DNA of 64,000 nucleotides from an uncultured Bacilli bacterium (GCA_947598485.1 CANQFJ010000005.1:3387-67386); one strand, 5' to 3'; shown: positions 19,713 through 46,476, counted from the stretch's first letter. The notes: generated from the sequence alone by a model not told the origin. A program made the numbers and translations.

Positions 19713-19936
19713 CACTACTTATGAGTAGTGTATTGATAATGTAGGTATACAAAAACATAATATCTATATTATCAGTACAGTGCTTATAAATAGCACTATC
19801 ATATTGCCAATATCGGCATTATGGTCTGAACTCGATAGAAATATCGGGTTTTATTTTGGTCTAATGCGTGAAGACCTTACCAAAAAAACTGTGAGTAAGT
19901 GAAGCAAAACACTTAACAAAAAAATAGGAGGAAAAT

Positions 19937-20779
19937 ATGGAAGATGAAATCCAAAATGTAGTTGAAGAAACCACTGAAAATACTGTGGAACAACCAGCAG
20001 AAGAAGTTGTTGAAGGTGCGGAGTTATCAAACGCCGCTGAAGCAGAGGAAACAACTGCTGAAGAAACTAAAGAAGATAACAAAGGCCGCTATATGACTGA
20101 GGAAGACATTAATAAGCTAGTAGATCGAAGAGTTGCTAGAAAGATGTCTAAACTTGAGGAAGATTATGATAGGCGAATGGCCGATTATAACGATACCAAA
20201 GCCATATTAGAGGCGGGATTAGGAACTTCTGATATAAAAGAAGCTAATCAAAAGCTAAGAGAGTTTTATCGTGGAGAAGGCTATGAAGTGCCTGACTATA
20301 AACCAACTTATACTAAACGAGAAAATAAAATCTTAGCAGAAGCAGAAGCAAATGAATTTATTGAAGATGGTTACGATGCCATGCTTAATGAAGCTAATAA
20401 GTTAGCTGCAAAAGGCTATGACAATATGGATGAAAGAGAAAAAATCATTTTCACTAAATTAGGAGAAAAGCTTACTGCTGAAAACGATAAAAAAGCTCTT
20501 CGCCAATTAGGTGCTAAAGAAGATTTAATTAATGATGAAAATTTCAAAGAATTTAGAAATCAATTTAAGTCCAATACACCTATGGAAAAAATATATGCCT
20601 TGTATAAAGGCATTCAACCTAAAACAAAGGTTGAAAATCCAGGTAGTATGAAAAATACTCCTACAAAAGAAGCTAAAGATCGATATACCGATGAAGAAAT
20701 AGCAAACCTTACCTTAGATGATCTAGATAAGCCAGGTGTTTTTGAAGCGGTAAGAAAATCAATGACTTCTAACAATTAA
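19937..20779 (+). CDS. scaffolding protein
   Basis: 280 aa with a very acidic N-terminus and helical K/E-rich body, between portal and capsid genes. RBS TAGGAGG. Confidence 0.6.
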   Translation: MEDEIQNVVEETTENTVEQPAEEVVEGAELSNAAEAEETTAEETKEDNKGRYMTEEDINKLVDRRVARKMSKLEEDYDRRMADYNDTKAILEAGLGTSDIKEANQKLREFYRGEGYEVPDYKPTYTKRENKILAEAEANEFIEDGYDAMLNEANKLAAKGYDNMDEREKIIFTKLGEKLTAENDKKALRQLGAKEDLINDENFKEFRNQFKSNTPMEKIYALYKGIQPKTKVENPGSMKNTPTKEAKDRYTDEEIANLTLDDLDKPGVFEAVRKSMTSNN

Positions 20780-20801
20780 AGAAAGAGAGGAAAGATAGCT
20801 C

Positions 20802-21635
20802 ATGGATGGAGCAAAACAAACAATATGGCATAAGGCTTATGAAAGAGCTTTAGAGACCATTACAAGTTTAAGAAATCACTGTGATTTCAAATATGAAAAA
20901 GATAGTAAAAATGCAAAGGAGGTAAAGGTTCTTAACGCAGTAAGACCTACAGTTAAAAAGTATGTACCTGGCACTAAGATTGATAGAGAATCTATTAGTG
21001 CAACTGATATGACTTTAAAACTAGATCAATTCTATTATTTTAATATTTCAATTGATGATGTTGTTAAAGCTCAATCAGTACCTGGTGCTATGGAAGCAAC
21101 TGCACAAGAAGGTGCTATTGCATTATCAGAAGAAGGCGACAAATATGTTGCAGAAGTTGTTAAAACTGGTGTAACTAATGAAGATATTGCTGCAGTAGAT
21201 AGTATTACACCTTCAAAGGCTAATGCTATTGAACATATCGAAAACGGTTTTGCAGTTTTATATGGTAATAACTGCAAAGTTAGTGAAAATTATTGGCTAG
21301 AAGTAGATCCTACTTACTACAAATATATTAGACCATCTATTACAGAGTTATTAACTAACAATGTAGAGATGGCTAAGAAAGGTATTGTTGGTAAGTATGG
21401 TAATGCTAATATCACTATTGAAAACCTATTACCTCACGATGAAACAGATGTTTATAATATCTTAAGAACTGAACATGCTATCGCTTTTGCTGAGCAAATT
21501 AATAAAGTTGAAGCATATAGACCTCAAGATGCATTTGAAGATGCTTTAAAAGGGCTTTATGTTTTCGGTGCATTACTTGCTAGAAAAGAAGAAATCGTAG
21601 TTCTTAAAACTAAGAAACCTGGTTTAACACCCTAG
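20802..21635 (+). CDS. major capsid protein (short, 277-aa form)
   Basis: Position after the scaffold, A/G/V-rich composition with higher-GC codon use. Ends ...KKPGLTP at CCC TAG. Confidence 0.65.
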   Translation: MDGAKQTIWHKAYERALETITSLRNHCDFKYEKDSKNAKEVKVLNAVRPTVKKYVPGTKIDRESISATDMTLKLDQFYYFNISIDDVVKAQSVPGAMEATAQEGAIALSEEGDKYVAEVVKTGVTNEDIAAVDSITPSKANAIEHIENGFAVLYGNNCKVSENYWLEVDPTYYKYIRPSITELLTNNVEMAKKGIVGKYGNANITIENLLPHDETDVYNILRTEHAIAFAEQINKVEAYRPQDAFEDALKGLYVFGALLARKEEIVVLKTKKPGLTP

Positions 21636-22221
21636 TAAGCCCGAAAAGGGCGAAATTAACTCTGTAACAGTTAATGTATCTTCTGGAAATTTAAAAGTTT
21701 CAGAAGCAGTAGCCGATAAGGAAATAGGCTCTATCTCTGTTGATGGCGGAGAGGAGCCTTATTCTTATGAGTTAACTGGTACAGATGCTGATAAGTTTAA
21801 AGTTGAAGAAACTAAAGTAAAAATTAAAGAAGCTTTAACTGAACCAAAAACTTATACAGCAAAAGTAAAGGTTACTGATAAAAACCAAAAAGAAAAAGAA
21901 AGCACTGATTTTAGTGTAGAAGTATCAGCAGATGATCCTGAAATAACTTCAATTACAGTTACTCCTGAACAAGGATTAACGGATCCAGTTACTGTTGATG
22001 CTAAGGTAGCTAGTTTAAGTTGTGAAGGTGGTACACCAGAATACACTTATTCTTTAGCTGGAGGTACTGATGATGAAAAATTTAAAATCGATGGTACTGA
22101 AGTAAAAGCAAGTCAACAACTAACAGAAAATACTTATACAATCAAAGTTAAAGTAACAGATAGTAAGACAAAAGAGAAAACCTCAGATGATGTAACTATA
22201 ACTGTTAGCAGTGCTGAATAG
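21634..22221 (+). CDS. Ig-like double-domain C-terminal extension of the capsid protein, read in the +1 frame (no own start codon)
   Basis: Frame 1 is open from 21628 to the TAG at 22219-22221. All 195 sense codons were checked by hand and none is ATG, GTG or TTG. There are two ~90-aa repeats with the pattern GG.P(Y/E)(S/T)Y.L.G.D..KFK....V......TYT.KVKVTD. Confidence 0.6.
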   Translation, partial: SKPEKGEINSVTVNVSSGNLKVSEAVADKEIGSISVDGGEEPYSYELTGTDADKFKVEETKVKIKEALTEPKTYTAKVKVTDKNQKEKESTDFSVEVSADDPEITSITVTPEQGLTDPVTVDAKVASLSCEGGTPEYTYSLAGGTDDEKFKIDGTEVKASQQLTENTYTIKVKVTDSKTKEKTSDDVTITVSSAE

Positions 22222-22240
22222 AGGCTTAATGCCTCTTTTT
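22221..22240 (+). terminator. rho-independent terminator after the Ig-like extension
   Basis: GAGGC-TTAAT-GCCTC followed by TTTTT. Confidence 0.6.
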
Positions 22241-22300
22241 ATCGTGTAAAAAGTATAATTGGTGCAACTCCAATAACACGACCAAGAAAGGATTTATATT

Positions 22301-22672
22301 ATGGAAAAGATTGAATATTACACTTTAAGACCTAATTTAAAACAAATTTACGGAAAGAAAGTAACAAAAAATACTGCCTTTAATGAAAAAACTGAAGATG
22401 GCACTGTTACTCAAGAATTTAAAAACTTAACATTAACCACAAGAATAAATAAAAAGAATAAAGTAGGGCAATACGAAATAGAAGAAAAGTCCGAAATGAA
22501 AGTAAAAGTGCCCGAAGGAACAATATTAATTTGGGATGAGCAAGAGGGCTTTATAGTTCCTCAATATCAAATGTGTACTTTAGATGAATTACAAAAAGAA
22601 ATAGAAGATATTCAAGACATTTATAAGGGTGATGATAATGACACTAAGGGAAATGAAAATAAAGACATTTAG
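22301..22672 (+). CDS. hypothetical virion protein (123 aa)
   Basis: First gene after the capsid terminator. RBS AAAGGA. Confidence 0.45.
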   Translation: MEKIEYYTLRPNLKQIYGKKVTKNTAFNEKTEDGTVTQEFKNLTLTTRINKKNKVGQYEIEEKSEMKVKVPEGTILIWDEQEGFIVPQYQMCTLDELQKEIEDIQDIYKGDDNDTKGNENKDI

Positions 22673-23234
22673 TCTTATAGAAGAATTTTATCCAGAAGAA
22701 AAAGGTTTAGCAGAAGATGAAGATGTTCTAAATAAAATAAATGGCGTAATAAATCAAATTCAAATGGACTTAATGCCATACAGGAAAATAAATGCTTCAA
22801 CTGAAGTTGAAATTGCCAAAGAAGATGATAAAGAAATCGACTTAACAAGTTTAATTGAAGGACTTTATCAAATAAACAAGATATATTTTGGCAAAGAAAG
22901 TGTTGAGTATGATATGCCTAACGACACTACTTTAATACTTCCTGATGACTACGAGGGAACATTTAAAATTTATTATTATAAATATCCAGAACTTGCTAAG
23001 CTAGAATTTAAAGATGAAGATGAAAAGCAAAAATATGATTCTAAATATGAATTTGAATTAGATCCTGATTTGCTTGAAGTAATGCCTTATGGTGTTGCTG
23101 ATACTCTTTTAAAAATGGATATGATAAGTAATTATGGGCAATATTTTAAAGCAGAATATGATGCAAGAAAGAATCAGCTTGATTCAAGAAGAACAAAAGG
23201 ATTTGCAACTATAACAGGAGGGTGTGATATTTAA
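22638..23234 (+). CDS. putative head-tail adaptor (position-based)
   Basis: About 199 aa. ATG at 22638 preceded by AAGGGTG. The size and position resemble a T7 gp11-type adaptor. No motif support. Confidence 0.35.
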   Translation: MTLREMKIKTFSLIEEFYPEEKGLAEDEDVLNKINGVINQIQMDLMPYRKINASTEVEIAKEDDKEIDLTSLIEGLYQINKIYFGKESVEYDMPNDTTLILPDDYEGTFKIYYYKYPELAKLEFKDEDEKQKYDSKYEFELDPDLLEVMPYGVADTLLKMDMISNYGQYFKAEYDARKNQLDSRRTKGFATITGGCDI

Positions 23235-25012
23235 TGGCAAGTTTATCTAGTATAATTACAAGAGTTTATAGCAATTTTCGTGGTGTTGATTTCTCAAATA
23301 ATGAAGTAGATAGATCTAGGAGCCCTTTTGCTTTGAATATGTGGAAAAATTATAAAGATAGTGAGTGCATTGAAACTAGGCCTGGAACAACATTACTGAA
23401 TAACTTTGGTAATAGAATTCTAGGCCTTTTTTTCTTGAAAAAAGATGATATATTACATGTTTTAGTACATACTGGTACAAAACTATTAAAATGGACTAAT
23501 TATCCGTCTACACCCGCTCAAACAACTGAAATTTTTGGCAGTATGAATGTTAGAGAAAGTAGCAGTTTTGTTTTTAAAGATACTTTATTTATAATGGATG
23601 GAATCAATTATTTAGAATATGATGGAGAAACAATTAAACCGGTAGAAGGTACTATCCCAATGACTTCATATTATAAAAACCCTGATGGTTCTACTTATAT
23701 TGATGAAGATACGGATATAGATTTAGTTTATCAACCAGTAAACTGCTTAACCAATCTTAGAAAAAATGCTTTTATTCCAGATGGAGTTAGTAAAGATTTT
23801 TACTTGGATGCTAAAAATTTAGATAGTTCAGCTATTTATCTTATGACCGCTACAGTTGGAGGTGTTCCTAAAACCGAAGGCGTAGATTTTAGCGTAGATA
23901 GAGAAAATGGAATTGTTACCTTTAATGAAATACCTCCTAAAGAAGAAGACGTTAAATCTGGCAAAGGAGACGTTGTTATTACTTACTCTAAAACAGGCGA
24001 GGGATATAAAGATAGAATTTTAAACTGCACTTTAGTTTGTGAATTCGATAATCGGTTCTTTTATAGTGGTAATCCTGATTATCCTAATACAGTCTTTCAT
24101 TGTGAACTTTATGACCCTAGATACATAAGAGATACAGCTTATTACGAATGTGGCCTTGATTTAGCCCAAGTAAAAGCAATTATCCCTGGTAATGGTGTAT
24201 TATGGGTTCTTAAGGATATTGAACAAAATTCAAGTAGCGTTTACTATTTAACACCAACACTGGACTCAACATATAACAAAATTTATCCTAGTGTTAACGG
24301 TTCGATTGCTTTAGGATGTTTATCTGCAGGAATTAATTTTAATGATGATATAGTATTCTTTTCAATTAAAGGATTAGAAGGCATTTCAAGCGGTTCTATG
24401 TATAGTGAACAATTATTACAACATCGTTCTAGCCTAGTAGATAATAAAATGGTTCACGAAGAAAAATATAAAGAGGTTAAATTAGCCGAATACAATGGCT
24501 ATTTGATGTGTTTTATGGGTAGTAAGGTATATTTAGCCGATAGTAGGAAAAGATACCAAAGTGGGGCTAATTCAATCGAATATGAGTGGTTCTATTGGGA
24601 ACTTCCGTTTGAAGTAAGCTATGTTAAAGAATATCGTCAAAATTTATTCTTAGCTAATGAAGATGGAGATTTATTCATTTTAAAAGGTATAACAGATAAT
24701 GGAGTAGATATTGAAAGTATATGGACTACTACTAAAGATGATTTTGGTTGTCCAGGTTATACTAAAACTACCAATAAAAAAGGAAATGTAGCAGAAGTAA
24801 AAACGATGAATAATGATAACATCCATCTTGATACAATAGTCGATGGTGTCTTAAAAGAAAAGAAAGTATTTTCAGATAAAAAGGGTTACTTCCCTTACAA
24901 AATAAAAGATAAAAAATTTAAAAATATTCAAATAAAAATTAGTTCAAATAAACCATTTGGACTTTTTTCATGTACGTTACAAGGTTTTGTAGCGGGCTAT
25001 ATAAAACGATAG
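23234..25012 (+). CDS. putative tail nozzle/tubular protein (position-based)
   Basis: 592 aa. ATG overlaps the previous stop (TAATG). Beta-rich composition. Confidence 0.35.
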   Translation: MASLSSIITRVYSNFRGVDFSNNEVDRSRSPFALNMWKNYKDSECIETRPGTTLLNNFGNRILGLFFLKKDDILHVLVHTGTKLLKWTNYPSTPAQTTEIFGSMNVRESSSFVFKDTLFIMDGINYLEYDGETIKPVEGTIPMTSYYKNPDGSTYIDEDTDIDLVYQPVNCLTNLRKNAFIPDGVSKDFYLDAKNLDSSAIYLMTATVGGVPKTEGVDFSVDRENGIVTFNEIPPKEEDVKSGKGDVVITYSKTGEGYKDRILNCTLVCEFDNRFFYSGNPDYPNTVFHCELYDPRYIRDTAYYECGLDLAQVKAIIPGNGVLWVLKDIEQNSSSVYYLTPTLDSTYNKIYPSVNGSIALGCLSAGINFNDDIVFFSIKGLEGISSGSMYSEQLLQHRSSLVDNKMVHEEKYKEVKLAEYNGYLMCFMGSKVYLADSRKRYQSGANSIEYEWFYWELPFEVSYVKEYRQNLFLANEDGDLFILKGITDNGVDIESIWTTTKDDFGCPGYTKTTNKKGNVAEVKTMNNDNIHLDTIVDGVLKEKKVFSDKKGYFPYKIKDKKFKNIQIKISSNKPFGLFSCTLQGFVAGYIKR

Positions 25013-25023
25013 GAGGATAAAAA

Positions 25024-26148
25024 ATGACTGATGAAGAAAAATTAGGAAGAATTGAACAAGAAAGACAAAAAGCTTTAACTGAGTCTAATTCTGCTTTTGA
25101 CGAATTAAGTAAAAATAGCCAAGACTTATATGACTTCCAAAATAATAATGCTAACCAATATGAACAACAACAAAATGATATTTTGGATAGAGAACTACAA
25201 TTTAATGAGTCAAAAATTGAACAACAAAAAGAGGAAGCTAGAAAAGCTAAAGAAGTAGAAGAAAAGAAAGCAAGAAATGACTATGCTGAATTTATAAATC
25301 CTTATGGCTATCAAAATGAAAGCTTAGCTGAAAGAGGATTACTTAATTCAGGAGTTTCAGAAACTTCTCAATTAGGAGGTTATAATGCTTATCAAAATAG
25401 ATTGTCTTCTGCTAATAAAGTATTGCAAGATGCTTTAACTCAGTATGATAACGATATAAATGAAGCAAGAGTTAATAATGATGTAGCTAAAGCTCAAAAT
25501 GCTCTAGCAAAACTACAATCCCAAATGCAATTTGCTGAAAATTATTATAATAACAAGTCAAATATTACTCAAAATAGATTAAATGCTAACCAATCATTAG
25601 ATAGTGAATATAATAGCCGTTATCAAAATGAGTTAGATAGGCAAGAAAGTATAAGACAATATAATGAACAAATGGAATTCCAAAGACAACAAGCAGCACA
25701 AGATCAAGCAAATTGGGAAAGAGAATATGCTTTAAGCCAAGCAAAAAATTCAAGTAGTTACTATGGCGGATTAGGTTCAGGTTACTATGGAACTAGTGGA
25801 AGTGAATTAGCTGGAGGTTTATCTGCTAATGGATATGGCATTATAGCTAATCCATATACTGGAACTGTCAATTCGGATGCACAATACGGAGTATTCCAAT
25901 ATAATGAATCCGGAACTGGATATCAACCTAACAATATTAATGGTCAAAAATTAAATAAAACTACTGCGGATGTAAAATCCTACTTTGGTATGACGGGAAA
26001 TGTCGATTCAGGCAAAGCTAATGTTGATAGTCAACATGTATGGGAGCTAAATGGAAGATTCTATATATGGGATGGACATGCTAATGAATATGTAGATGTT
26101 ACTGGTGCAGGAATAATGACGCCTATACCATTAAATAAAATGAAATAG
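25024..26148 (+). CDS. Q/N-rich coiled-coil virion protein with G/Y-rich C-terminal region (possible internal/ejection protein)
   Basis: 374 aa with RBS TAGGAGG. Low-complexity Q/N and SSYYGGLGSGYYG segments. Confidence 0.4.
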   Translation: MTDEEKLGRIEQERQKALTESNSAFDELSKNSQDLYDFQNNNANQYEQQQNDILDRELQFNESKIEQQKEEARKAKEVEEKKARNDYAEFINPYGYQNESLAERGLLNSGVSETSQLGGYNAYQNRLSSANKVLQDALTQYDNDINEARVNNDVAKAQNALAKLQSQMQFAENYYNNKSNITQNRLNANQSLDSEYNSRYQNELDRQESIRQYNEQMEFQRQQAAQDQANWEREYALSQAKNSSSYYGGLGSGYYGTSGSELAGGLSANGYGIIANPYTGTVNSDAQYGVFQYNESGTGYQPNNINGQKLNKTTADVKSYFGMTGNVDSGKANVDSQHVWELNGRFYIWDGHANEYVDVTGAGIMTPIPLNKMK

Positions 26149-26160
26149 AGGAGGATAGTT

Positions 26161-29100
26161 ATGGGTATAAATCTAGGAGAAATACGGCAAAAAAATTTAA
26201 CAACAGGATCAACTAGCCCAAGATTAAGTGGACAAATTACCACCGGTACCACACCATATAAACAATCTTCAAGTCTCAACAGAAATTCAGCGGATTATAA
26301 GAAAACGGTCCTAGATATAAAAAAGAATCAACTTTCTGAGGCCAACTCTAAATTGAGAAATTATATTTCTGAAAATGTCGATAGTCAATTGAAGACTCCG
26401 GGACAAATAAAAACAAAAAACTATAGTGTTCCATTCCAAAAGCCGGTATCTAAAATAGACCTCGTAGATTCAGCAAAAAAATATGATGAGCAATTGAAAA
26501 ATTTATATTCAACAGAGACATATAAATCCTTAAAAGAAAATGTTGATAAACTGAGTAAAGAAGAAAATTTAGCCTATAGAGAATATAAAAAATCTATAGA
26601 AAAAGATGAATTGCCTTGGTATAAAACCATATTACAAACTCCTGAAGCTTTTAAAGATGGTTATGATTTTGGTGATGTAACTAAAACAGTCTTATCTTCC
26701 GCAGGTGATCTTGCGTTAGAAACCATCGGTGGGATAACATCCTTGGGTGATTCAGGTGCAAAACTTATTGCTAGTGCTGGAGCTCAAATAGGTGATTGGT
26801 TAGGCTTTGATGATTGGGCAGATGAAGTTAGATACAAAGTGGCAGGAAAAAGCGAAAATGTCAATAAATTGCTAAAAAAATGGACACCTTCAGGATGGGT
26901 AGATACTGCTAAAGATGAAGTAAATAAGAATAGTGTATTTGGAAATTCGGTGGATGAAGTAATGCAAGGAGCCGGATATTATGCAGGTATGTTGGCTTTA
27001 CAAAGTGTTGGTGTCCCTTGGGAAGCAACCACTGCGGTAAGTGCTGCCGGTAATGAATTATCAGAAGCTTATGCAAACGATGCTACAGACATTGAGGCTT
27101 GGGTTAGTGCGACAAATTCTGCCGCTTGGGAAGTTGCAAGTGAACTACTTTCTGGTGGTATAAAGTTACCCGGTACAGGTAAAGCTTTAGATGGGGTTTT
27201 TTCTAGTCTAACTGAAAACATAAAAAATAAAACTGCTAAATTCCTTTTAGAAGCTGGCTATCAAATGGGTGGCGAAGGTCTAGAAGAAGTGATTTCAGGA
27301 TTAGGCAGTTCAATTGGGAAAAAATTAACCTATATGAGTGATAAAGATTTTGCTGAGATATATTCTAAAGAGGATGCCTTAAAAGATTTTGTCATAGGTG
27401 GAGCGGTTGCAGGATTGACTAATTCAGTTAACCCAGCTACTTGGCATAATATAAGTTCAGGCAAAAGTTTATTAACAGGTAGAACTTCAGAAGAAGCTAA
27501 GAGTAGAAATGAAACAATACAAAAGCTTTCTACTGAAGCTGAACAAAGCAAAGGTAGAAAGTTAAACCCTAAAGAAAAGGCAGATATAGAGGACTATGTC
27601 GATGGAGTGTTGTTAGATAAGCTTTATTCCTTAAAAAATGACTTAGAGGCAGCAGAAGAGGCCACCGAAAAATCTTCTTTAACAAAGGAAATAGAAGATT
27701 TACAAAATAAGATTACGGAAATTGTTTCAAGTACAAAGTCATTAGATATTTTACAATATCAATTGAGTGGCCAAAATCAAGTATCGCAAAATTCTATAAT
27801 GAATACACAAACTTTTACTACGGGTAATGAGAATGCAATTAACTCTATGTTAGTTCAAAATGGTGTTAAGAATAGCATAGCACCTCAACAAAATGTAAAT
27901 CCATCTAATCAAGTATTTCAATTTACGAAAACAGGAAATACTAAAGTAGATAATTTCTTACAATCTGCAGTAAATAGTCGTTTCAATAATACTAAACAAT
28001 CACAAGATTTTTTAAATAGTTATTCAAAGATAATAAAAGATAAAGGATATAATGTCATATTTGATTCTACAATTAATAAAAATGGCAAAAGTGTAAATGG
28101 TCAAATAACTGCTTTAAAAAACGGAGAAGTAGAAATAAGAATAAATCCTAACTCTAATACTTCTGGAGAGTTCTTAATTGTTCACGAAGTTACACATGCC
28201 GTAGAAAATGAAGGATTAACTGACTTTATTATAAAATATGCCGAACATCACGATGATTTTAAAGCTGCACTTCAAGATAAAATGAATCTTTATGGAACTG
28301 ATCAAGTTACAAGTGAAGTTGTAGCGGATATTTCAGCTCAAGTTCTTGGCAATCAAGAATTTATAAACAGCTTAGTTATGGAAAATACTACTCAATCAAA
28401 AACAATAATTAGAAAGATATATGATTCAATAAAGAGATTGGTAAATACTTTTACAAGTGAGGGCAGATACAAAAATTTTGTTCAAGATTTAGAGCAAAAA
28501 TGGAGAGAGGCGTACAGAACAATTACTCAAGAGCAAGCTGTTAGTAATTTAAATAACGAAACTAAATTTGCAACACAATTTAAAGATATTTTGTTGAGAA
28601 ACAAAAATTTAAATAGTAATTCTAGAATTCCTATTGTAAACTCTAACGAAAAAGTAGTTACTACATCACAGAATTCTATAAGATTACAAAATGATTTTAA
28701 AAATAATGTTAAAACTGGTGTTTATAAAAATAAAGCGACAGGTTATGAAACATCCATCGATTCAGATACAAAAGGAAAAATTTTAAGGCCAAATGGTATT
28801 AAGACTGCTACTACCACACAGGATTATATATTAAGAATGATTAGTGCTAATAATTTACCTACATTGTTTGAAAATGCTGTTTACATTGATACTTTAAAAC
28901 CTATGAAAAATAAAGCAAGCAACCCTAATGAATTGGGATATCATCATTTTTTAGCTCCTATTTATATAGACGGAACTTTTTATAGAGCATTAATAACTGG
29001 TAAAGAAAAACAAAATTCAAAAAAGTTATATTCTTTAAATGTTGAAATTTTGACACAAAAAAATGGAAGTACTCCGTTGGCAAACGCAAATAGCGGATAC

Positions 29101-32100
29101 CAATTAAGTGGAATACTTCCAACTGACATGAGTATATCAGATTTAGTTAAAGGTGTCAATATTTTTAATTATGACACCGGTCAATATCAAACATACAATG
29201 ATACTGACATTAAATATTCTATGCAAGAAAGTGTAAATAATACACAAGATAGTCAAGGTAGAGAGTTATCTAAAAACCAACAAGAATATTTTAAAGATAG
29301 TGTATTAAGAGATGAAAACGGAAATTTACAAGTTTATTACAATGGCGGTGGAGATTACACTTCTTTTGATAATACTAAAATGTCAGACCAAAGCAAGTGG
29401 GGAAAAGGAATATACCTTTCTAAATATCAAGAAGTGAGCCAGTTGTATGGGGATAATATAAAAGAAGTATATGCTAATATTACTAATCCTTTAAGTTCAT
29501 CAGAAAAGACAATATCTTTTGAACAATATAACGATTTATATCAGTCATTATTTGAAGGAGAAGAAGCTTATCAAGAGGAATATGATATGTATTCCAATGA
29601 CTTGGACTTATTATGGGATATTACTGATAAAGGAAATTGGGCAGACTATGCTGATGAGATAAAAAAATACACAGGTAAAGATGGAATCGTTATTAATAGT
29701 GAATCTAAAGCAGATGATATGGCTATTGCTTTTCAATCTAATCAAATAAAAAATGTAGATAATACAAGTCCTACAACTAATAATGATATAAGATATTCTC
29801 AAAACTCCAATAAATGGCAACAATATTTAGAAAAACATTATAAAGCAACAGGTACTAGAACTAATATGAACTCTATTAAAGCTCCAACAAGAAATAAAGG
29901 GCTAGATAATAGTTCTTTTTCTTTTGATCAAAAACAATCTAATAAACCTGTTTCAAATGAACAGGTAAAAGCAAATGATACTCCATTAAATCCAAAGCAA
30001 CGTAGATGGGTTAAAACATCTACTGAAAGTAAAACCATTAAAGGGAAAGTTTTAATAGAAAATTTAGACTATGCTAAAACAAATTATGTTGTTAGAAGTA
30101 ATAAAAGCACATTAGAATCCGCTAATTCTAAATTAGAATCTTTAGGATATGAAGATTCAATATCATATATAAGAAGTAAAATGAGTGACAAAAAAATCGA
30201 TTTAGAAGATATAGCTTTAGCAGAAAGGCTAATTCAAGAATCGATAAAAAATGGAGATGCCAAAACTGCTAGTGACTTAATAATGGATGTAGCTATTTTA
30301 GGTACCGAATTAGGACAAAAAGTACAAGCGTTATCTATAATTCAAAAACTAACTCCAGAAGGGCAACTTGCTATGTATCAAAAAATTGTATCAAGAGCAA
30401 AAGCAAAGGGCGAGAAAGCTTACACGGATGTAAATATTACTCAAGATATGACAGATACCATATTAGGTGCTTATAACGAAGATGGCACTTACGATCAAAA
30501 TGATTTAAATGAAAGAGTAGAAATTTTTAAACAACAAGTTGCAGAACAATTAAAAAGTAGTAAGTCCGAAAAAATTAATGAGTGGAGATATTTAAGCATG
30601 TTAGGTAATCCTAAAACTCATATTAGGAATATGGTCTCTAATTTAGCTATGACAGGCACAATTAAAGTTAAAAATGCAATGGCTAGGACAGGAGAGGCTA
30701 TAGCATCAAAATTGACTACAATTGAAAGAACTAAAACCTGGAAGAAATCAAGCGATACTGTAACAAACTTTGCAAAGCAAACGGCTGAAGAGATGAAAAG
30801 TGTTATTTCTGGTGAAAGTAAATATGGTGAAAAAGCTTCAATAGAGTCTAAAAAACAAGTTTTTAAAAGTAAAACTTTAGAGAGAATCAGTGATTTTAAT
30901 AGTAATGCACTTGAAGCAGAAGATTGGTTTTTTAGCAAAAGAGCATTTCAAAATTCTTTTAGTGAGTATTTAACTGCCAATGGAATAGAAACTCAACAAG
31001 ATATAACCAATAATGCAAAACTTATTGAAAAAGCTAAATTATATGCCGTTGAACAAGCAGAAATAGCTACGTTTAGACAATATAGTAAATTAGCTAGCTT
31101 AATTAATAAATTTGAAAGAAATAACAAAGTGGCGGGACTAGCAATAGGAGCTACTATACCTTTTAAGAAAACACCTATTAATGTAGCTAAAGCAGGTGTT
31201 AACTATTCTCCTATTGGTTTAATAAAAAGCATAAGTTACGATGCTTTTCAGTTACATAAAGGGAATATAAATGCAAGTCAATTTATAGACAATGTTTCTC
31301 AAGGAATGACTGGAACAGCATTAACATTGTTGGGGTATGCTCTTGCAAAAGCAGGCTTTGTATCTGGTGCAGGAGATGATGACAAAGAAGGCAAGATGGA
31401 TTACTATTTAGGCAATCAATCATATTCTTTAAAGTTTGGAAAGACAACATTTCCAATAAGTTGGGTTTCACCTGTTGCCATGCCTTTCTTGGTTGGAGCT
31501 AATGCATATGAAAAATTAGAAAATCAAGAAGAATGGGATGCTAATATTGTTATCGATACATTAGCACAAACTTTAGATCCTTTGAGCGAAATGTCTTTCA
31601 TTTCTAGTTTAACAGATGTACTGCAATCTTATAACCAAGGCTCATTTAAGATGCTTTCATCTATGGGTACAAAAGCAGCACAAAGTTACATTGGACAATT
31701 TTTTCCAACTTTATTTAGCCAAATAGCCGCTACCTTTGATGACACAAAAAGATCAACATCAGCATCTAAGAACAGTTCGTTTAAAGTAGCAGAGGAAACT
31801 GTAAGGCAGATAATGTATAAAATACCTGGTTTAAGGAATATGTTGGAGCCAAGCACTAATATATGGGGTGAAGAACAAAAACAATCGGATAACATATTTG
31901 TAAGAGCGTTTAATAACTTTATAAATCCATCTTCTCCTAAAAGCTATGCACCAACGAAATTAGAAAACGAATTAAAAAGAGTTTATAGAGAAACAGGTGA
32001 CTCTAGTGTTATACCTGGCATTCCTTATGGCAACATAAAATACAAAGGAATAAACTATCAAATGTCGTCTGAAGAATATACAAAATACAAAAAAACTTAT

Positions 32101-32898
32101 GGCCAAAATGCTAAACAAAAACTAACAGCATTGATAGATAATGATGATTATAAGAAAGCAACTGATGAACAAAAAGCTAAAATGATAGATCAGGTATTTG
32201 ATTTTTCAAAAGCTATTGCTAATGAGGAATACTTTAAATCAATTAAAATCGACTTTTCTAGTGACAATCTAAAAACGATAAAGGAATTGAAAGAGTTAGG
32301 CTTTAGCGACAAAACTATTATTGATTATACTGCAAAATATGCGATTATTAATTCAATTAAGCAAGACAAAACTTTGACAAGCGAGCAAAAGCAAAAGAAT
32401 ATTGCAAGTGAATTAATAAATAGCAACTTTAATAATAAAGAACTAGCATATATGTATGATAAAGCAGGCTACTCTAAAAAAGAAAAATTAGATGCATTAA
32501 TAACTATGAACATTCCTATTAAAGAATTTATAAAATTGGATAGTTCAGATATTAGCAGTGACTACGATACAAGTACAGGCAAGGCTATAACTAATTCTAA
32601 GAAAAATAAATACATTAAATATGTGGATAGTTTAAAGCTTTCTACACCTCAAAAAGCTATTTTAATAAAAATGCAATATAACTCATATAACAATTACAAT
32701 GATCAAATTGTAAAATACATAGATAGCTTAAAAGAGACAATAAATGATAAAAAAATATTGCTTACTAGGATAGGATTTGATGATTACAGAAAAGAGGTTA
32801 TTAATTATGTGATGTCGAAATACAAAAATCCAGAAGAAAGAATTGAAATGTTGAAACAACTAGGATACACAATTAGAAACGGAAGGGTGTATTGGTAA
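26161..32898 (+). CDS. giant 2245-aa multidomain virion protein with zincin HExxH motif and glycine-rich hydrophobic segments (polyvalent-protein-like / ejection protein)
   Basis: Uninterrupted ORF with RBS AGAGGAGG. HEVTH at nt 28183-28197. Hydrophobic G/A-rich stretches at about 26950-27450 and 31300-31510. Several distinct globular regions. Confidence 0.8.
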   Translation: MGINLGEIRQKNLTTGSTSPRLSGQITTGTTPYKQSSSLNRNSADYKKTVLDIKKNQLSEANSKLRNYISENVDSQLKTPGQIKTKNYSVPFQKPVSKIDLVDSAKKYDEQLKNLYSTETYKSLKENVDKLSKEENLAYREYKKSIEKDELPWYKTILQTPEAFKDGYDFGDVTKTVLSSAGDLALETIGGITSLGDSGAKLIASAGAQIGDWLGFDDWADEVRYKVAGKSENVNKLLKKWTPSGWVDTAKDEVNKNSVFGNSVDEVMQGAGYYAGMLALQSVGVPWEATTAVSAAGNELSEAYANDATDIEAWVSATNSAAWEVASELLSGGIKLPGTGKALDGVFSSLTENIKNKTAKFLLEAGYQMGGEGLEEVISGLGSSIGKKLTYMSDKDFAEIYSKEDALKDFVIGGAVAGLTNSVNPATWHNISSGKSLLTGRTSEEAKSRNETIQKLSTEAEQSKGRKLNPKEKADIEDYVDGVLLDKLYSLKNDLEAAEEATEKSSLTKEIEDLQNKITEIVSSTKSLDILQYQLSGQNQVSQNSIMNTQTFTTGNENAINSMLVQNGVKNSIAPQQNVNPSNQVFQFTKTGNTKVDNFLQSAVNSRFNNTKQSQDFLNSYSKIIKDKGYNVIFDSTINKNGKSVNGQITALKNGEVEIRINPNSNTSGEFLIVHEVTHAVENEGLTDFIIKYAEHHDDFKAALQDKMNLYGTDQVTSEVVADISAQVLGNQEFINSLVMENTTQSKTIIRKIYDSIKRLVNTFTSEGRYKNFVQDLEQKWREAYRTITQEQAVSNLNNETKFATQFKDILLRNKNLNSNSRIPIVNSNEKVVTTSQNSIRLQNDFKNNVKTGVYKNKATGYETSIDSDTKGKILRPNGIKTATTTQDYILRMISANNLPTLFENAVYIDTLKPMKNKASNPNELGYHHFLAPIYIDGTFYRALITGKEKQNSKKLYSLNVEILTQKNGSTPLANANSGYQLSGILPTDMSISDLVKGVNIFNYDTGQYQTYNDTDIKYSMQESVNNTQDSQGRELSKNQQEYFKDSVLRDENGNLQVYYNGGGDYTSFDNTKMSDQSKWGKGIYLSKYQEVSQLYGDNIKEVYANITNPLSSSEKTISFEQYNDLYQSLFEGEEAYQEEYDMYSNDLDLLWDITDKGNWADYADEIKKYTGKDGIVINSESKADDMAIAFQSNQIKNVDNTSPTTNNDIRYSQNSNKWQQYLEKHYKATGTRTNMNSIKAPTRNKGLDNSSFSFDQKQSNKPVSNEQVKANDTPLNPKQRRWVKTSTESKTIKGKVLIENLDYAKTNYVVRSNKSTLESANSKLESLGYEDSISYIRSKMSDKKIDLEDIALAERLIQESIKNGDAKTASDLIMDVAILGTELGQKVQALSIIQKLTPEGQLAMYQKIVSRAKAKGEKAYTDVNITQDMTDTILGAYNEDGTYDQNDLNERVEIFKQQVAEQLKSSKSEKINEWRYLSMLGNPKTHIRNMVSNLAMTGTIKVKNAMARTGEAIASKLTTIERTKTWKKSSDTVTNFAKQTAEEMKSVISGESKYGEKASIESKKQVFKSKTLERISDFNSNALEAEDWFFSKRAFQNSFSEYLTANGIETQQDITNNAKLIEKAKLYAVEQAEIATFRQYSKLASLINKFERNNKVAGLAIGATIPFKKTPINVAKAGVNYSPIGLIKSISYDAFQLHKGNINASQFIDNVSQGMTGTALTLLGYALAKAGFVSGAGDDDKEGKMDYYLGNQSYSLKFGKTTFPISWVSPVAMPFLVGANAYEKLENQEEWDANIVIDTLAQTLDPLSEMSFISSLTDVLQSYNQGSFKMLSSMGTKAAQSYIGQFFPTLFSQIAATFDDTKRSTSASKNSSFKVAEETVRQIMYKIPGLRNMLEPSTNIWGEEQKQSDNIFVRAFNNFINPSSPKSYAPTKLENELKRVYRETGDSSVIPGIPYGNIKYKGINYQMSSEEYTKYKKTYGQNAKQKLTALIDNDDYKKATDEQKAKMIDQVFDFSKAIANEEYFKSIKIDFSSDNLKTIKELKELGFSDKTIIDYTAKYAIINSIKQDKTLTSEQKQKNIASELINSNFNNKELAYMYDKAGYSKKEKLDALITMNIPIKEFIKLDSSDISSDYDTSTGKAITNSKKNKYIKYVDSLKLSTPQKAILIKMQYNSYNNYNDQIVKYIDSLKETINDKKILLTRIGFDDYRKEVINYVMSKYKNPEERIEMLKQLGYTIRNGRVYW

Positions 32899-34376
32899 TG
32901 AATCAAGACAAAACAAGAGCAGTAACTCTTGAAGACTTAATAAGAAGATATGATCTAGAAAATTTAAAAGCTGAAAGAAAAGTCATTAAAACAATGGCTA
33001 CTACAATCGAAAATCAGCATACGATAATAAAACAATTTGTAAAAAATGTTTCAAAGTACACAAAAGACCAGGCTAAATTAACGGCTTGGTTTTTTAGTGG
33101 TGTACCATCACTTGAAAATGAGCCATTTTTAAGCCTTTCAGAAGAAGAAAAACAAAATGTGGAACATTTATACTATGACCGAGAAACTGGGCTTGTGTAC
33201 CACCTAGAAAATGACGGAGAGTATAAATGGACTGTTATCGATGACGATAGCTTAACTCAATCAATGGCAATAGCTAATTCTGATCCTGATTCGCAAGATA
33301 ATAAAAGAAATGTTTTCTATGAACAGCCAACTCCTCCTTATGCGGTTGGAGATATATGGATTGATAATAACATTATTATGCGTTGTCGATGTTCCAGAGA
33401 TGGTGACGAGTTTAAAGACACTGAATGGGTAGAGCAAAAGAACTATTCGGAATCTAATGTACTATTAGATGTGAGAGCAGTTATAGATAGCTTTATTGAA
33501 AATGTTGAAAAGAATTATGTTACAACCTCAAAGCTCGAAACAACTAAAAGTTCTATTGAAGCAGAGGTTAAAGCAAAACTTGAGGGTGTATCAGATGAAG
33601 AAGGCTTTGTAACAGTTGCTAGTTTGATTTTAGCAATTAATGGTGCTGAGTCGTCCGCTAAGATTATGGCTGATAAAATCGCTTTAACTGCTACTGATAT
33701 TCTAGACCTAATTGCGGGCAATGAAATTAACCTTACCAGTAGAAATATCACAATAAAATCAGATAATTTTAGTGTAACCAAAGATGGGGTAGTAACCACT
33801 AATAAACTTAAAGCAACAAATGCTGAGATAATTGGAAAAATAAAAGGTTCAACATTTACTGGTGATAAGGAAAATGTAGTATTACAAATTGGAAGCGACT
33901 CAAATGGAGATTTAAAAGAAGATAATTCTTTACAATTAGTAAAAAAACAAGATAACAGTCTAATAATTGGTTTTTATTTTAGAACATGGACTTCTAATAA
34001 TAAGGTGGTTTATATAGATTCATCGACTAATAAATATTGTTTCTTTAATGATGCTGAAGTTTCTGCCGGCAGATTTAGAATATCTAAAGAACCAGCTAAC
34101 GCAGATGATGCAATGAGAATACAGGATTTCAATACTCAATTGTCCAAACACATCCAAACTGGAACCTGTCAACTTAATCAAGTTGATAATACAGTATATT
34201 TTCCAACATCGTTTAACAGCCCACCGAAGGTGCTTTTGCAGTGTACTGAAGGATATGGTGACGACATGTATGCTGCACATATAGTTTCAGTAACAACTAC
34301 TTATTTTCAAGCCTATGTGCCAGTAAAAGGGTTAAACGAATATAAAAACTTTTATTGGGTTGCAATAGCTGAATAG
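32898..34376 (+). CDS. tail fibre/spike protein with C-terminal H-type-lectin-like domain
   Basis: ATG overlaps the giant ORF stop (TAATG). The C-terminal VYFPTSFNSPPKVLLQCTEGYGDD...VSVTTTYFQAYV resembles the H-type lectin pattern. Confidence 0.5.
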   Translation: MNQDKTRAVTLEDLIRRYDLENLKAERKVIKTMATTIENQHTIIKQFVKNVSKYTKDQAKLTAWFFSGVPSLENEPFLSLSEEEKQNVEHLYYDRETGLVYHLENDGEYKWTVIDDDSLTQSMAIANSDPDSQDNKRNVFYEQPTPPYAVGDIWIDNNIIMRCRCSRDGDEFKDTEWVEQKNYSESNVLLDVRAVIDSFIENVEKNYVTTSKLETTKSSIEAEVKAKLEGVSDEEGFVTVASLILAINGAESSAKIMADKIALTATDILDLIAGNEINLTSRNITIKSDNFSVTKDGVVTTNKLKATNAEIIGKIKGSTFTGDKENVVLQIGSDSNGDLKEDNSLQLVKKQDNSLIIGFYFRTWTSNNKVVYIDSSTNKYCFFNDAEVSAGRFRISKEPANADDAMRIQDFNTQLSKHIQTGTCQLNQVDNTVYFPTSFNSPPKVLLQCTEGYGDDMYAAHIVSVTTTYFQAYVPVKGLNEYKNFYWVAIAE

Positions 34377-34388
34377 GAAGGAGAAAAA

Positions 34389-34676
34389 ATGATAGTAATA
34401 AAATTTATTAAAGACTATTGGACACAAATAGTCTTTTTATTTGGTCTATTTTCAGCTTTTTATGGTCAATATAAAGCCTCTAAGAAAGCGACCTTATGTA
34501 GTTTAAGAAATGATATTTTAGAAATTTATGACAAATGCAAGGCTTCTAAGACAATATCATGCTTTCAAATGGAGAGCTACATAGATAGCAGAGACTTATA
34601 TTTTAAACTTGGCGGAGATGGATTTATTCATAAGCTTGATGACATCATTACTAATGAATTTAAAGTTGTAGATTAG
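34389..34676 (+). CDS. small N-terminally membrane-anchored protein
   Basis: 95 aa with RBS AAGGAG and one N-terminal TM helix. Confidence 0.4.
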   Translation: MIVIKFIKDYWTQIVFLFGLFSAFYGQYKASKKATLCSLRNDILEIYDKCKASKTISCFQMESYIDSRDLYFKLGGDGFIHKLDDIITNEFKVVD

Positions 34677-34688
34677 AAAGGAGTAATA

Positions 34689-37001
34689 ATGAACGAAATA
34701 AAATTAAAAGTAAATTTTGAAAAGCGAACTCTCACAAAAATAGGAGTCGATTTAACAGTTAATGATTATAACTCTACAAAACTAGTTTTTGAATTCGATA
34801 AACCAGAAGGCACAAAAGTTTTTGAAATGACTAATCCTTCTGGTGAATTGATTCTTTTACAAACAATAGAAAATAACGAGGTAATTTTAACAGGCAAAAC
34901 GGAAGAGGGAAAAGATGCATCACTTTTTACCGAAGAAGGACAATATATCTTCGAAATAAGCTTATATGATGGAGATAGTAAACTTACTTCTGCAAGTGGA
35001 AAGTTAAGAGTAAAAGCTGAACAGGTCCAGGTAAACGGTGAGGTAGTAACTCAATACCTCCCAATGTTTGATGAACTGTTATCAAAAGTTAGAGAATCAG
35101 TTCAAGAAGTAAATACTTTAAAAGAAAAAGTAATCGAAGATGTAACAACATTAAAAAATAATGTAGTCGAAGAAGTAAATACATTAAAAGATAATGTTAC
35201 AAAAGATGTAAACGAACTTAAGGATACAACAATTAAAGATTGCGCCTCAGCAAGTGAAAATGCTAATGAAATGGCTAACAAAGCCTCACAAGCAGCAGAA
35301 GGAGCGGAAAGCGCTACTGCATCCGCCAATGATGCCATAAGGCAAATGGAAAACATAGATATTACTGTTGATAAAGTAGATACAACTTCCACTGTCACAA
35401 TCACTGACAAACAAGGTCAGTCAAAATCAGTTGAGATTCTAGATGGAAAAGTTGGTCCCATTGGTCCTCAAGGGATTCAAGGCAATGTAGGTCCAACAGG
35501 CCCGGCACCAATTTTAGACATAGGAAATGTCGAAACAACTCTTCCAAGTGAAAATGCTAAAGTTACCATATCTGGTGGAGAAGGCAAGTATACACTTAAT
35601 TTTTCGATACCACAAGGAATACAAGGTGAAAGAGGAGAAATTGGACCACAAGGGCCTAAAGGCGACCAAGGTTTAGTAGGGCCTCAAGGAGATACTGGCC
35701 CACAAGGCCCACAAGGATTAACAGGTAATGAAGGACCTGTTGGACCACAAGGTGAAAGAGGGTTACAAGGAGATAAAGGAGAAAAAGGGGACAAGGGAGA
35801 TCCTTTTACTTATGATATGTTTACTCCTGAACAATTAGAACTCCTAAAAGGCCCTAAAGGAGATATGGGTGAAACAGGTCCAAAGGGAGATGCAGGTAGT
35901 GCGTTTACTTATGACATGTTTACTGAGGAACAATTAAAAGCTTTAACCGGCCCACAAGGACCTCAAGGTGAACCTGGCGCAACTGGTGTGCAAGGGCCTG
36001 TCGGACCAGAGGGACCAAGGGGTGAACAAGGCCTTCCAGGAGAAGTTGGACCACGAGGAGAAAAAGGAGACGCCTTTACTTATGCAGACTTCACACCTGA
36101 GCAGTTAGAAGCTCTTAAGGGTCCAAAAGGCGACAGAGGTGAAGAGGGCCCACAAGGACCCACTGGACTTCAAGGACCGACTGGCAACCCTGGGGCGGAT
36201 GGAGCACCTGGTAAAGATGGCGTTAGTCCTACAATTTCTACCGAAGATATAGAAAATGGCACAAAAGTCACAATAGTTGATGCTCTAGGCTCAAAAGACT
36301 TTACAGTATTAAATGGTAAAGATGGCGCTCCTGGACCTCAAGGACCTGAAGGACCAGTTCCTAAAAAGGTTTCAGAGTTTGAAAATGATGCAAAATATGT
36401 TGATGAAGATTATGTAAAAGGCTTATCTACAAATCCAATTACCTCAGGTTTATGGACACACGAAGGATTGCCTGGAACTACTGATGCAGTATTGAAAATT
36501 AGGTGTAATAATGACTATCTTTTAGCAGGCGGTGATGTTGCTTCTAATTTCCGTGTTTGGAATAAAGCAGTTGTATTTGCAGAACAACCTATATTTGAAA
36601 AAGGATTTCAATTACAAGGTGTGCAAAGTGAATTAAAAGGTAACATGAGTAGATTGTGGGACTTTCAATATGTCGATGCAACTTCCCCTTGGGCTCCCCA
36701 CTGTGGAGTATTTACAGGCTCAGATTTTAATGATGGTTCTATAACGGATACTAATCATAATTTCGTATGTATAAATACGCAAGTAGATCGAGTAGGTAAT
36801 CCTAATACTCGTTGGTCTTACCAAGCTTTTGATAAAGATGCTGAGGAAAATCTAACTCGTAATTTCGGTGTTAGATGCGATGGTGTTCTTTTCACAAATG
36901 GCAATGTAGTTCCTGCATTTATAGAAGCCCGTAGCGAAGCTGAATTAAAAAGCTTAAGTGCATCTAATCCAAATGCCGTTTACTACACTGCAGAGGAATA
37001 A
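34689..37001 (+). CDS. collagen-like tail fibre
   Basis: 770 aa. Long G-X-Y tracts ([17 protein letters not shown]...) with three conserved FTY.(M/D)FT.EQL..L.GP.G interruptions, an N-terminal 11-residue-type repeats and a globular C-terminus. Confidence 0.8.
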
Positions 37002-37003
37002 TT

Positions 37004-37891
37004 ATGCTAGCAATTAATAACAAAAAAATAAGCAAATTATACATCGGGGGCAAAGAGGTAACTTCTATGTATATCGCGGGGCAAAAAATATATAAATCCG
37101 GTCTAAAAATTGTATCGTTTCACGATGGCACGGATGCAGAAATATCTGCGATGTTAGACGCACACTACAGCGGGCAAATTAACATAAGCGACTATTGGAA
37201 AGTTGGAGATACAAGAGTGATACATATTGATGCAACTAATAGTGGTACCAAGCCCCATGTTGCACAAAATATGACTATAGTTATATATGGATTTGACCAC
37301 GATAATTTGTCTTCTCGTATAGGTAACCGAGAAAAAGCCGCAGTTACGGTTGGGTTTAGAGAGGCTTTAGGGTTTAATGGAAGTAATGAAAATGAATACT
37401 ACTGGGGTAGTTCGCGTAGCCTAGTTAATAATACTGATAATTATCCAGATAGTCCTTTAAGAACTTGGTTAAACGGCAGTTTATTAAATGCTATGCCGAG
37501 TACCTTTAGTTCTTTAATAAAAGAAGTCCAAAAATGGAATTTAGCAATGCACACGGATTATATTCCATTAATATCTTTAGAAAAAATATGGTTATTAAGT
37601 TATCCCGAAGTTTTCGGCCAAGTCATATATACACATTATATAAATGGCGGAAGTGTAGGAGAATGGGAAGGTACTCAATATGATTATATGAAAACTTCTT
37701 CAAATAGAATGAAAAAAGCAAATAATAATGGAGCGCCGGGGTCTAGTGGAGCATACTACTGGTTAAGAAGCCCTAGTTCACGTGGTGATAGTTATGGTGG
37801 ATTTTTTTGGTGTTGTGTGGGTACAGATGGCACCGCCTATAGTTATGGTGGCACCGTAACTAGGGGTTTAGCTCCAGCATTTTGTTTGTAA
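37004..37891 (+). CDS. putative receptor-binding/tail-fibre-associated protein with YWLRSP motif (DUF6273-like, tentative)
   Basis: 295 aa. AYYWLRSPSS motif, G/Y/W-rich C-terminus, and position after the fibre gene. Confidence 0.4.
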   Translation: MLAINNKKISKLYIGGKEVTSMYIAGQKIYKSGLKIVSFHDGTDAEISAMLDAHYSGQINISDYWKVGDTRVIHIDATNSGTKPHVAQNMTIVIYGFDHDNLSSRIGNREKAAVTVGFREALGFNGSNENEYYWGSSRSLVNNTDNYPDSPLRTWLNGSLLNAMPSTFSSLIKEVQKWNLAMHTDYIPLISLEKIWLLSYPEVFGQVIYTHYINGGSVGEWEGTQYDYMKTSSNRMKKANNNGAPGSSGAYYWLRSPSSRGDSYGGFFWCCVGTDGTAYSYGGTVTRGLAPAFCL

Positions 37892-42911: not shown

Positions 42912-42986
42912 GAACTTAATATATTAAATATTATTGTAATTGTCAAATAAAGTAGCTTATAATATAGAAAGTGAAAGAGAGAAGTT

Positions 42987-44791: not shown

Positions 44792-44853
44792 AATATTTTA
44801 GTCTCCTAACTTAATTTTATCATGTTTTAGAGCAATAAAAAAGTAGTCTAACA

Positions 44854-46439: not shown

Positions 46440-46476
46440 CACTTTATTTATGACTTTATTTTAGATATAATATTAA

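Follow-up and report, generated by a model that had tools for sequence, protein, structure and literature searches.

A giant polyvalent protein with an exchangeable cassette in a Bacilli prophage, a probable ejection protein of a podovirus-like phage

We describe a giant protein of 2245 amino acids (aa) encoded by a prophage in a 64,000-nucleotide stretch of DNA, hereafter the window, from an uncultured Bacilli bacterium (GCA_947598485.1 CANQFJ010000005.1:3387-67386), the phage host being a low-GC gut Bacillota bacterium. The protein consists of a conserved frame, made up of an N module, a zincin-like module and an all-alpha C core of ~750 aa, around a variable middle. Its domain content, its place among virion genes and the predicted structure of its C core suggest that a temperate podovirus-like phage probably carries it inside the virion as an ejection protein, with a polyvalent effector cassette built in. 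The concept of the polyvalent protein has already been published, and the very large family described here is, as far as the libraries and literature searched show, undescribed.

A protein search against 5.8 billion sequences returned 389 matches, mostly of 1600-3200 aa and of metagenomic origin, and the best 120 of these were mapped onto the query. The resulting division of the giant gene, with positions counted from the first nucleotide (nt) of the window, is as follows.

26149-26155, plus strand: ribosome-binding site GAGGAGG, 5 nt before the ATG of the giant gene
26161..32898, plus strand: giant open reading frame (ORF) of 2245 aa, uninterrupted, with an ATG start
26161..26607, plus strand: N-terminal region (aa 1-149), found in the closest relatives only and covered by 1-3 of the 120 homologs
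26608..27510, plus strand: Gly/Ala (G/A)-rich N module (aa 150-450), conserved, in 90 of 120 homologs
aa 451-564: variable linker, poorly covered by homologs
27853..28560, plus strand: zincin-like module (aa 565-800), with the HExxH residues H675, E676 and H679 (28183-28197) and with E719 (28315) and D723 (28327)
28561..29850, plus strand: replaceable cargo cassette of LPD3 and an ART-like module (aa ~801-1230)
28696..29031, plus strand: LPD3 (PF18798; aa 846-957), containing GYHHFLAPIY
29311..29775, plus strand: ART-PolyVal (PF18760; aa 1051-1205), with N1061 (29341), Y1085 (29413) and D1174 (29680) at the triad positions
29923..32190, plus strand: all-alpha C core (aa 1255-2010) of ~750 aa, conserved in 117 of 120 homologs
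32191..32895, plus strand: C-terminal tail (aa 2011-2245), less conserved, with homolog coverage dropping from 100 to ~21-70

The zincin-like module is frequently conserved among homologs and the region of aa ~800-1250 is variable. The closest relative (L001, from a rabbit-gut Bacilli genome bin) agrees with the query at 94% of positions in the C-terminal 1,015 aa (aa 1231-2245) and at 65% in aa 1-804, and the region between the two is unalignable. At the nucleotide level, identity to this relative amounts to 87% upstream, 78% in the N part and 94% across 29985-33830, with a break at 28553-29985. The cassette that it carries at this point consists of LPD23, a SprT-like zincin domain and ~400 aa without a match. 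Because this relative keeps the flanks and carries another middle, the LPD3/ART part recognised earlier is a replaceable cassette. The middles of other homologs combine GNAT with ART, ART with a Pol-beta nucleotidyltransferase, LPD23 with ART, or LPD23 with DUF3990 and two ART modules, or hold MuF_C, and an M23 peptidase appears among precomputed Pfam matches only. A comparison of domain order across homologs, which the original prediction had proposed, was run and places the recognised domains in a swappable cassette within a larger unannotated frame. The ~400 aa of the alternative cassette in L001 (8675-9970) belong to no Pfam family and constitute an uncharacterised cargo module.

Both recognised cassette domains exceed the curated cut-offs of their Pfam families. 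LPD3 scored E 2.2e-12 (47.6 bits against a cut-off of 27) in the scan of the whole protein and E 2.8e-14 (53.7 bits) when its segment was scanned alone, and ART-PolyVal was recovered over profile positions 1-139 of 140 (E 3.1e-14, 54.3 bits against 31.2) when the giant protein was scanned as ten overlapping segments. LPD3 was the sole match of the whole-protein Pfam scan, which missed the ART-PolyVal module that scores 54 bits in a lone 261-aa segment; similarly, the whole-protein scan against PHROGs was empty and the segment scans matched phrog_18222 and phrog_21376. Routine pipelines probably under-annotate giant proteins of this kind. A weak match to DUF6819, seen in the query only and absent from other family members, was treated as due to chance.

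These results settle several points of the original prediction, which had been read from the DNA by eye. The GYHHF segment that it singled out lies inside LPD3 (GYHHFLAPIY, at aa 926), its HExxH motif is HEVTH at aa 675-679 (His codons at 28183 and 28195), and the three parts of its ART-like block are found in order (LQVYYNGGG at aa 1056, WGKGIYLS at 1080 and VYANITNPL at 1103). As the segment scan gave a full-length match, its comparison with ART-PolyVal was correct. It had further read a Tyr in place of the expected catalytic His; the ART identity and the non-canonical site stand, and the Tyr gives way to N1061, which occupies the His column.

The active site of this ART clade comprises a His in strand 1, a Tyr in strand 2 and an Asp in strand 5 (H-Y-D; Iyer et al., PMC5512222). 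Across 44 distinct copies aligned with a hidden Markov model (HMM), the His column holds His in 36, Cys in four, Asn in three and Asp in one, and the Asn is confined to the query, the near-identical fragment P0001 and the homolog P0007. The active-site His is not present in the query module in this alignment, N1061 filling its column, and the substitution is from His to Asn, and not to Tyr, because Y1060 is the counterpart of the conserved Tyr that stands directly before the His. The Tyr and the Asp are both kept, as Y1085 in GKGIYLS and as D1174 in a conserved (Y)DG(I/V) motif that would correspond to strand 5. The ART modules of the query and P0007 are 66% identical and the C cores of the same pair 51%; because the former value exceeds the latter, the module looks maintained and not decaying. 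Many relatives (homologs P0017-P0041, ~aa 960-1130) hold two or three copies of ART-PolyVal. The second copy in some of them has a Cys (LKYCAMY) or an Asp in the catalytic His column, so that degenerate ART copies recur in the family.

The zincin-like module carries an ExxxD motif (E719/D723) 40 residues downstream of the HExxH. HExxH followed by ExxxD is the gluzincin pattern, as found for example in thermolysin. H675, E676, H679, E719 and D723 are each at least 95% conserved among 51 aligned sequences, the query and 50 distinct homologs. The corresponding part of the AlphaFold2 (AF2) model reaches a predicted local distance difference test (pLDDT) score of ~70-80 and consists of a three-stranded sheet followed by the HExxH-bearing helix, a topology that fits a zincin; the Pfam families M91, M48 and Aspzincin all scored below threshold. 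We regard the module as a candidate metallopeptidase and not as a member of a named family.

The N module is marked by two invariant motifs, DGY..GD.T.T and EG.EEV, matches no Pfam or PHROG family and is modelled by AF2 as helical at low confidence (pLDDT 23-49). The original prediction had described G/A-rich hydrophobic segments here; the composition is borne out (24% G+A in aa 201-400), and the hydrophobicity falls short of that of transmembrane (TM) segments. The stretch between the N and zincin-like modules (27478-28080, aa 440-640) is rich in Asn, Gln, Ser and Thr, which make up 48% of aa 501-600, and looks like a flexible linker.

A short sequence, which we call the junction motif ([IVTL][RK][YF]S[LMQVFI], typically D-I-K/R-Y-S-L/Q), recurs in the variable middles. 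In the 120 homologs it occurs 130 times in cargo regions (1.43 per 1000 aa), once in the part between the N and zincin-like modules and not at all in the ~103,000 aa of C cores and tails, and a longer form of the motif was observed 111 times against 6 expected from shuffling. The 130 hits are distributed between the C-terminal end of ART (42), the position just before ART (33) and other places (55), such as after the zincin-like module or after GNAT. The query contains exactly two, flanking the ART module, and the other ORFs of at least 100 aa in the window contain none.

29209..29223, plus strand: junction motif 1, I-K-Y-S-M (aa 1017-1021), downstream of LPD3 and upstream of the ART module
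29788..29802, plus strand: junction motif 2, I-R-Y-S-Q (aa 1210-1214), where the ART module and the cassette end

The motif may be a cleavage site for the in-cis peptidase and, equally, may be a structural linker. Iyer et al. (PMC5512222) proposed in general terms that the metallopeptidase (MPTase) domains of polyvalent proteins cut these into parts. At the left edge of the cassette, ETKFAT (28558-28575, aa 800-805) contains a degenerate form of the motif, T-K-F-A; in relatives the corresponding position, directly behind the zincin-like module, reads T-K-Y-S (for example P0010 at aa 711 and P0087 at aa 685).

With at least two unrelated domain types (LPD3, ART-PolyVal and HExxH...ExxxD) beside late virion genes, the giant protein falls within the definition of polyvalent proteins as far as sequence analysis can tell, as the original prediction had held: the two Pfam domains exceed their thresholds, the HExxH...ExxxD residues are conserved and the gene lies among virion genes. 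It shares with the proteins described by Iyer et al. (PMC5512222) the presence in one giant polypeptide of several unrelated domains, including LPD3, ART-PolyVal and a putative zincin-type HExxH module, as well as a gene location among late virion genes and a highly variable domain content in relatives. It differs from them in its virion part, which consists of a C core and an N module outside Pfam and not of MuF or an N4-type virion RNA polymerase; that work does not use the terms "ejection protein", "internal virion protein" and "transmembrane". A functional precedent is gp47 of the Stx phage phi24B, a protein of 2811 aa that proteomics detected in podovirus virions and for which a role in ejection has been proposed (bioRxiv 10.64898/2026.04.10.717836). 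Both are giant polyvalent proteins of temperate podoviruses or podovirus-like phages, and they differ in their LPD sets (LPD5, LPD1, LPD38 and MuF-C in gp47) and in the junction motif, which is absent from gp47; no similarity between the two was detected by BLAST or with profiles of the N, zincin-like and C modules. T4 Alt likewise carries an ART-type module in the virion and delivers it with the DNA (a model cited in PMC5512222), but Alt is a separate small protein of the R-S-E clade, whereas the present module is a member of the H-Y-D clade without the His.

The C core contains the invariant motifs WRYLSMLGNPKTHIRN (30583-30630) and PFKKTPIN (from 31159) and two hydrophobic helices, at aa 1720-1738 (31318-31374) and aa 1762-1780 (31444-31500). 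The latter agree with the C-terminal amphipathic or TM segments noted originally, the two moderately hydrophobic windows falling at nt 31318-31500; the repeat-rich tail noted with them was not recovered, self-BLAST and Tandem Repeats Finder (TRF) detecting no repeats. No family of Pfam, PHROGs or NCBIfam and no PDB sequence matches the core, and PDB sequence searches with the whole protein, the C-core profile, a profile of the N and zincin-like modules and both upstream neighbours were all without a match. Its profile nevertheless matches 18,803 representatives of 50%-identity clusters (E <= 1e-3), 7,165 of them at E <= 1e-30. In every one of the 147 best retrieved representatives the core lies on the C-terminal side, behind ~50 to 3000 aa of other sequence, and its length is near-constant (~730 profile positions) in proteins with a total length of 905-3844 aa. 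It occurs at no fewer than 241 loci (at least) in species-representative genomes, mostly of gut Bacillota and including the cultured Dielma, Massiliimalia, Agathobaculum and Ligaoa, and in at least 580 IMG/VR loci, on contigs mostly of ~20-45 kb and none above 46 kb. A whole-protein tblastn search of 50,697 GenBank phage records returned a single fragment, limited to the LPD3 region, and nothing of the frame.

The AF2 model of the C core is almost entirely helical (pLDDT 67.9, predicted template modelling score 0.56). Searched with Foldseek against BFVD, it matched, in a first tier, members of its own family from gut metagenome phages (E 1e-37 to 1e-25) and, in a second, proteins annotated as "internal virion protein" of T7-like marine podoviruses, namely Pelagibacter phage Eyrgjafa (E 1.7e-12) and Synechococcus phages S-CBP2 (3e-10), S-CBP3 (6.7e-10) and S-RIP1 (1e-8). 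For these internal virion proteins, the TM-scores on the query lie at 0.34-0.48. Among five P-SSP7 proteins compared, the C-core profile favours gp16, through two collinear blocks of sub-significant score (hhalign P 0.01): a weak match of SVLSGPKTSVRA to the family's most invariant motif, SMLGNPKTHIRN, and another, also weak, over G-L-x-G-x-G...I-x-I-G, near the hydrophobic helices. On the strength of these models, the C core resembles the predicted structures of podoviral internal virion proteins.

T7 gp16 has an N-terminal lytic transglycosylase, two predicted TM helices and an alpha-helical body (PMC8954989). The giant protein resembles the gp16 of the T7 group in its large all-alpha body, its two hydrophobic helices and the location of an enzymatic module on the N-terminal side, and its gene position, after putative tail-tube-like genes and before the fibre gene, would fit that of T7-group and P-SSP7 gp16. 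Unlike the T7 group, the phage has one giant protein instead of a gp14/15/16 set, a swappable multi-domain cassette and a monoderm Bacillota host, and T7 gp15 and gp16 match the giant protein significantly neither in sequence nor in solved structure. Ejection proteins have been reviewed as occurring mainly in phages of Gram-negative hosts, phi29-like phages being without them (PMC8954989). We describe the giant protein as gp16-like, its resemblance stopping short of established membership in the gp16 family.

The giant gene is part of a late structural operon with the order terminase, P22-like portal, capsid, 201-aa, 592-aa and 374-aa proteins, giant protein, tail protein and collagen fibre. 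Its TAA stop overlaps the ATG of the following gene and, judged from the sequence, it is translationally coupled to this next tail gene. The prophage extends from the integrase (2015-3112) to ~39.7 kb, a length of ~37.5 kb, the limits being set from gene content. Given these limits, the giant gene takes up ~18% of the prophage; ORF, share and neighbours agree with the original prediction of an uninterrupted 2245-aa frame of that share among virion genes. The neighbouring features are as follows.

2015-3112, minus strand: tyrosine integrase, left prophage limit
3584-4288, minus strand: S24/helix-turn-helix CI-like repressor, on the left prophage side
16358-17731: large terminase, virion module
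18024-19712: P22-like portal, virion module
20802-21635: major capsid protein, virion module
22629..26148, plus strand: three unannotated proteins of 201, 592 and 374 aa, upstream syntenic virion genes
32898..37001, plus strand: tail protein (H-type lectin) and collagen-like tail fibre, downstream of the giant gene
from 39995 (39995-48285): host genes for a DUF6020 membrane protein, a HIGH nucleotidyltransferase, miaA, a transglutaminase-like protein and lepA, right limit

Synteny with the giant gene extends to the three upstream genes, which were found in 49 (201 aa), 69 (592 aa) and 54 (374 aa) of 158 related loci. Three of the virion proteins have homologs in the Bacillus megaterium podophages Page, Pony and Pascal and their relatives, with E-values of 1e-27 for the portal, 1e-25 for the 592-aa protein and 4e-12 for the 201-aa protein; in Page, the 201-aa protein is homologous to Page_12 and the 592-aa protein to Page_15 ("virion structural protein"). 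Page is a podophage for which electron microscopy has been reported (PMC3990757). This kinship, together with the likeness of the C-core model to podoviral internal virion proteins, is in line with the podovirus context proposed at the outset. The Pagevirus phages also share a genome size of ~40 kb and, in Page, a large protein at the end of the structural module (Page_20; 1679 aa, 19786-24825); Page_20 has no detectable similarity to the giant protein, and the gene order of the tail region differs. Page_20, annotated as a hypothetical protein, may be a functional counterpart of the giant protein. A profile of the 592-aa protein gave no significant match to T7 or P-SSP7 gp12, and its identity as a nozzle is not established. 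Downstream, the 494-aa protein that follows the giant gene bears an H-type lectin domain at its end, a domain used in the genome paper of Page to identify its tail fibre (PMC3990757), and is followed by a tail fibre of 770 aa that bears collagen triple-helix repeats (PF01391, E 1e-25) and by a 295-aa DUF6273 protein (34689-37891).

Packaging, ejection, membrane insertion, proteolytic processing and cassette activity, all of which we infer, could be linked as follows. The giant protein would be made late and packaged in the head in few copies and, on adsorption, would pass through the portal and tail ahead of the DNA or together with it. The C core, with its two hydrophobic helices, would play the role of the gp16 class of T7 and P-SSP7 and help to form a path for the DNA across the wall and membrane, and the N-terminal part would bring the conserved gluzincin-like peptidase and the variable cassette into the cell. 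The cassette, here LPD3 and an ART-PolyVal module without the catalytic His, would act on host targets at entry, in takeover or counter-defence, and may be set free by the in-cis peptidase through cuts at D-I-[KR]-Y-S junctions. A fuller version, which we offer tentatively and regard as more doubtful than not, makes the protein a self-processing delivery polyprotein, in which, once the protein has been ejected into the monoderm host, the gluzincin would cut at D-I-[KR]-Y-S and free the effectors, the gp16-like C core would serve as membrane conduit for the DNA, the middle would be a recombining plug-in slot between two fixed junctions and the His-less ART would be a non-catalytic binder or decoy.

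Several observations weigh against the interpretation as an ejection protein with a polyvalent cassette. The podovirus morphology is deduced from distant homologs, the portal being ~23% identical, and the phage and the family members are known here from sequence and not from virions. As regards the C core, the confidence of the model is moderate (pLDDT 67.9), its hydrophobic helices are moderate as well (Kyte-Doolittle 1.2), and comparison with the PDB, including T7 gp15/gp16, gave no match, Foldseek returning generic helical noise only. The BFVD targets are themselves predicted models, some of them named from synteny and size, as are gp15 and gp16 in the P-SSP7 record, and the matches to P-SSP7 gp16 fall short of statistical significance. 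Confidence in the model of the N module is poor (overall pLDDT 49.6), the zincin fold is unconfirmed, a Foldseek search of the model against the PDB having given no match, and the Pfam MPTase-PolyVal family is not matched by the giant protein. Finally, because 42 of the 130 junction hits correspond to a conserved C-terminal extension of ART, the junction motif may be structural.

The genomic position of the giant gene, between tail-side genes and the fibre gene in a phage known from its genes and not its morphology, would also suit an external or tail-lumen protein of a short tail, such as a plug, needle, knob or wall-degrading protein, that stays with the particle and whose enzymes act on the wall from outside. 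We consider this unlikely. The gene does lie directly between tail-side genes and receptor-binding proteins, some members have an M23 peptidoglycan peptidase among their precomputed Pfam matches, and Page-like phages encode a "lytic tail protein"; however, the targets of the ART, GNAT, Pol-beta nucleotidyltransferase and MuF_C (PBECR RNase) cargos lie inside the cell, the C core shares its all-alpha make-up with internal core proteins and lacks the beta-rich character of fibres or knobs, and its BFVD matches are internal virion proteins.

Packaging being a deduction from gene content, the giant protein might alternatively never be delivered and act as a late cytoplasmic or head-internal protein in assembly or superinfection exclusion, in keeping with the notion that prophage-encoded polyvalent proteins could act within the lysogen. 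This we hold to be very unlikely, since the gene sits inside the late virion operon and is translationally coupled to the next tail gene, the frame is conserved with virion genes across thousands of phage lineages, and phi24B gp47 offers a precedent in the virion.

We give hardly any credence to a tape-measure protein of a long-tailed phage with acquired extra domains, and reject it on the kinship with Page, the lack of a rival tape-measure gene and the pattern of lengths: the protein is very long, largely helical and endowed with G/A-rich segments and hydrophobic helices, in Bacillota phages M23 or lytic domains are often found on tape-measure proteins, and the gene precedes tail-tip and fibre genes, but the portal is P22-like and, like the 201-aa and 592-aa proteins, matches podophage Page, the genes immediately upstream encode 592 and 374 aa and not a small chaperone pair, and scans of Pfam, PHROGs and NCBIfam assign the giant protein to none of their tape-measure, tail-tube, sheath or chaperone families. 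A relative's contig has only four genes between the capsid and the giant gene and otherwise the same order; it contains no other tape-measure, tube or sheath candidate, the giant gene alone being of tape-measure size. Among the retrieved representatives the C core is near-constant while total length varies fourfold, which is at odds with a length ruler. The original prediction had named a conventional tape-measure protein without enzymatic modules as the outcome that would count against it; profile scans yielded LPD3 and ART-PolyVal.

Read as a probable ejection protein with a built-in effector cassette, the giant protein bears on a proposal for which direct evidence is scarce, namely the prediction made in 2017 that polyvalent proteins are delivered with phage DNA and cut by their own metallopeptidase. 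The family constitutes a testable system for it: the frame is fixed, the cassette has sharp edges and varies from one near-identical phage to another, and the junction motif yields a prediction of the places where cleavage would be expected. It also exposes an annotation gap, the C core being abundant (18,803 cluster representatives) and yet outside Pfam and PHROGs. If the C core is a counterpart of the gp16 type, the class of ejection proteins would extend to podoviruses of Gram-positive gut bacteria, and, should the protein prove to be a self-processing polyprotein, the locus would be a plug-in slot for counter-defence cargo that is exchanged among near-identical phages.

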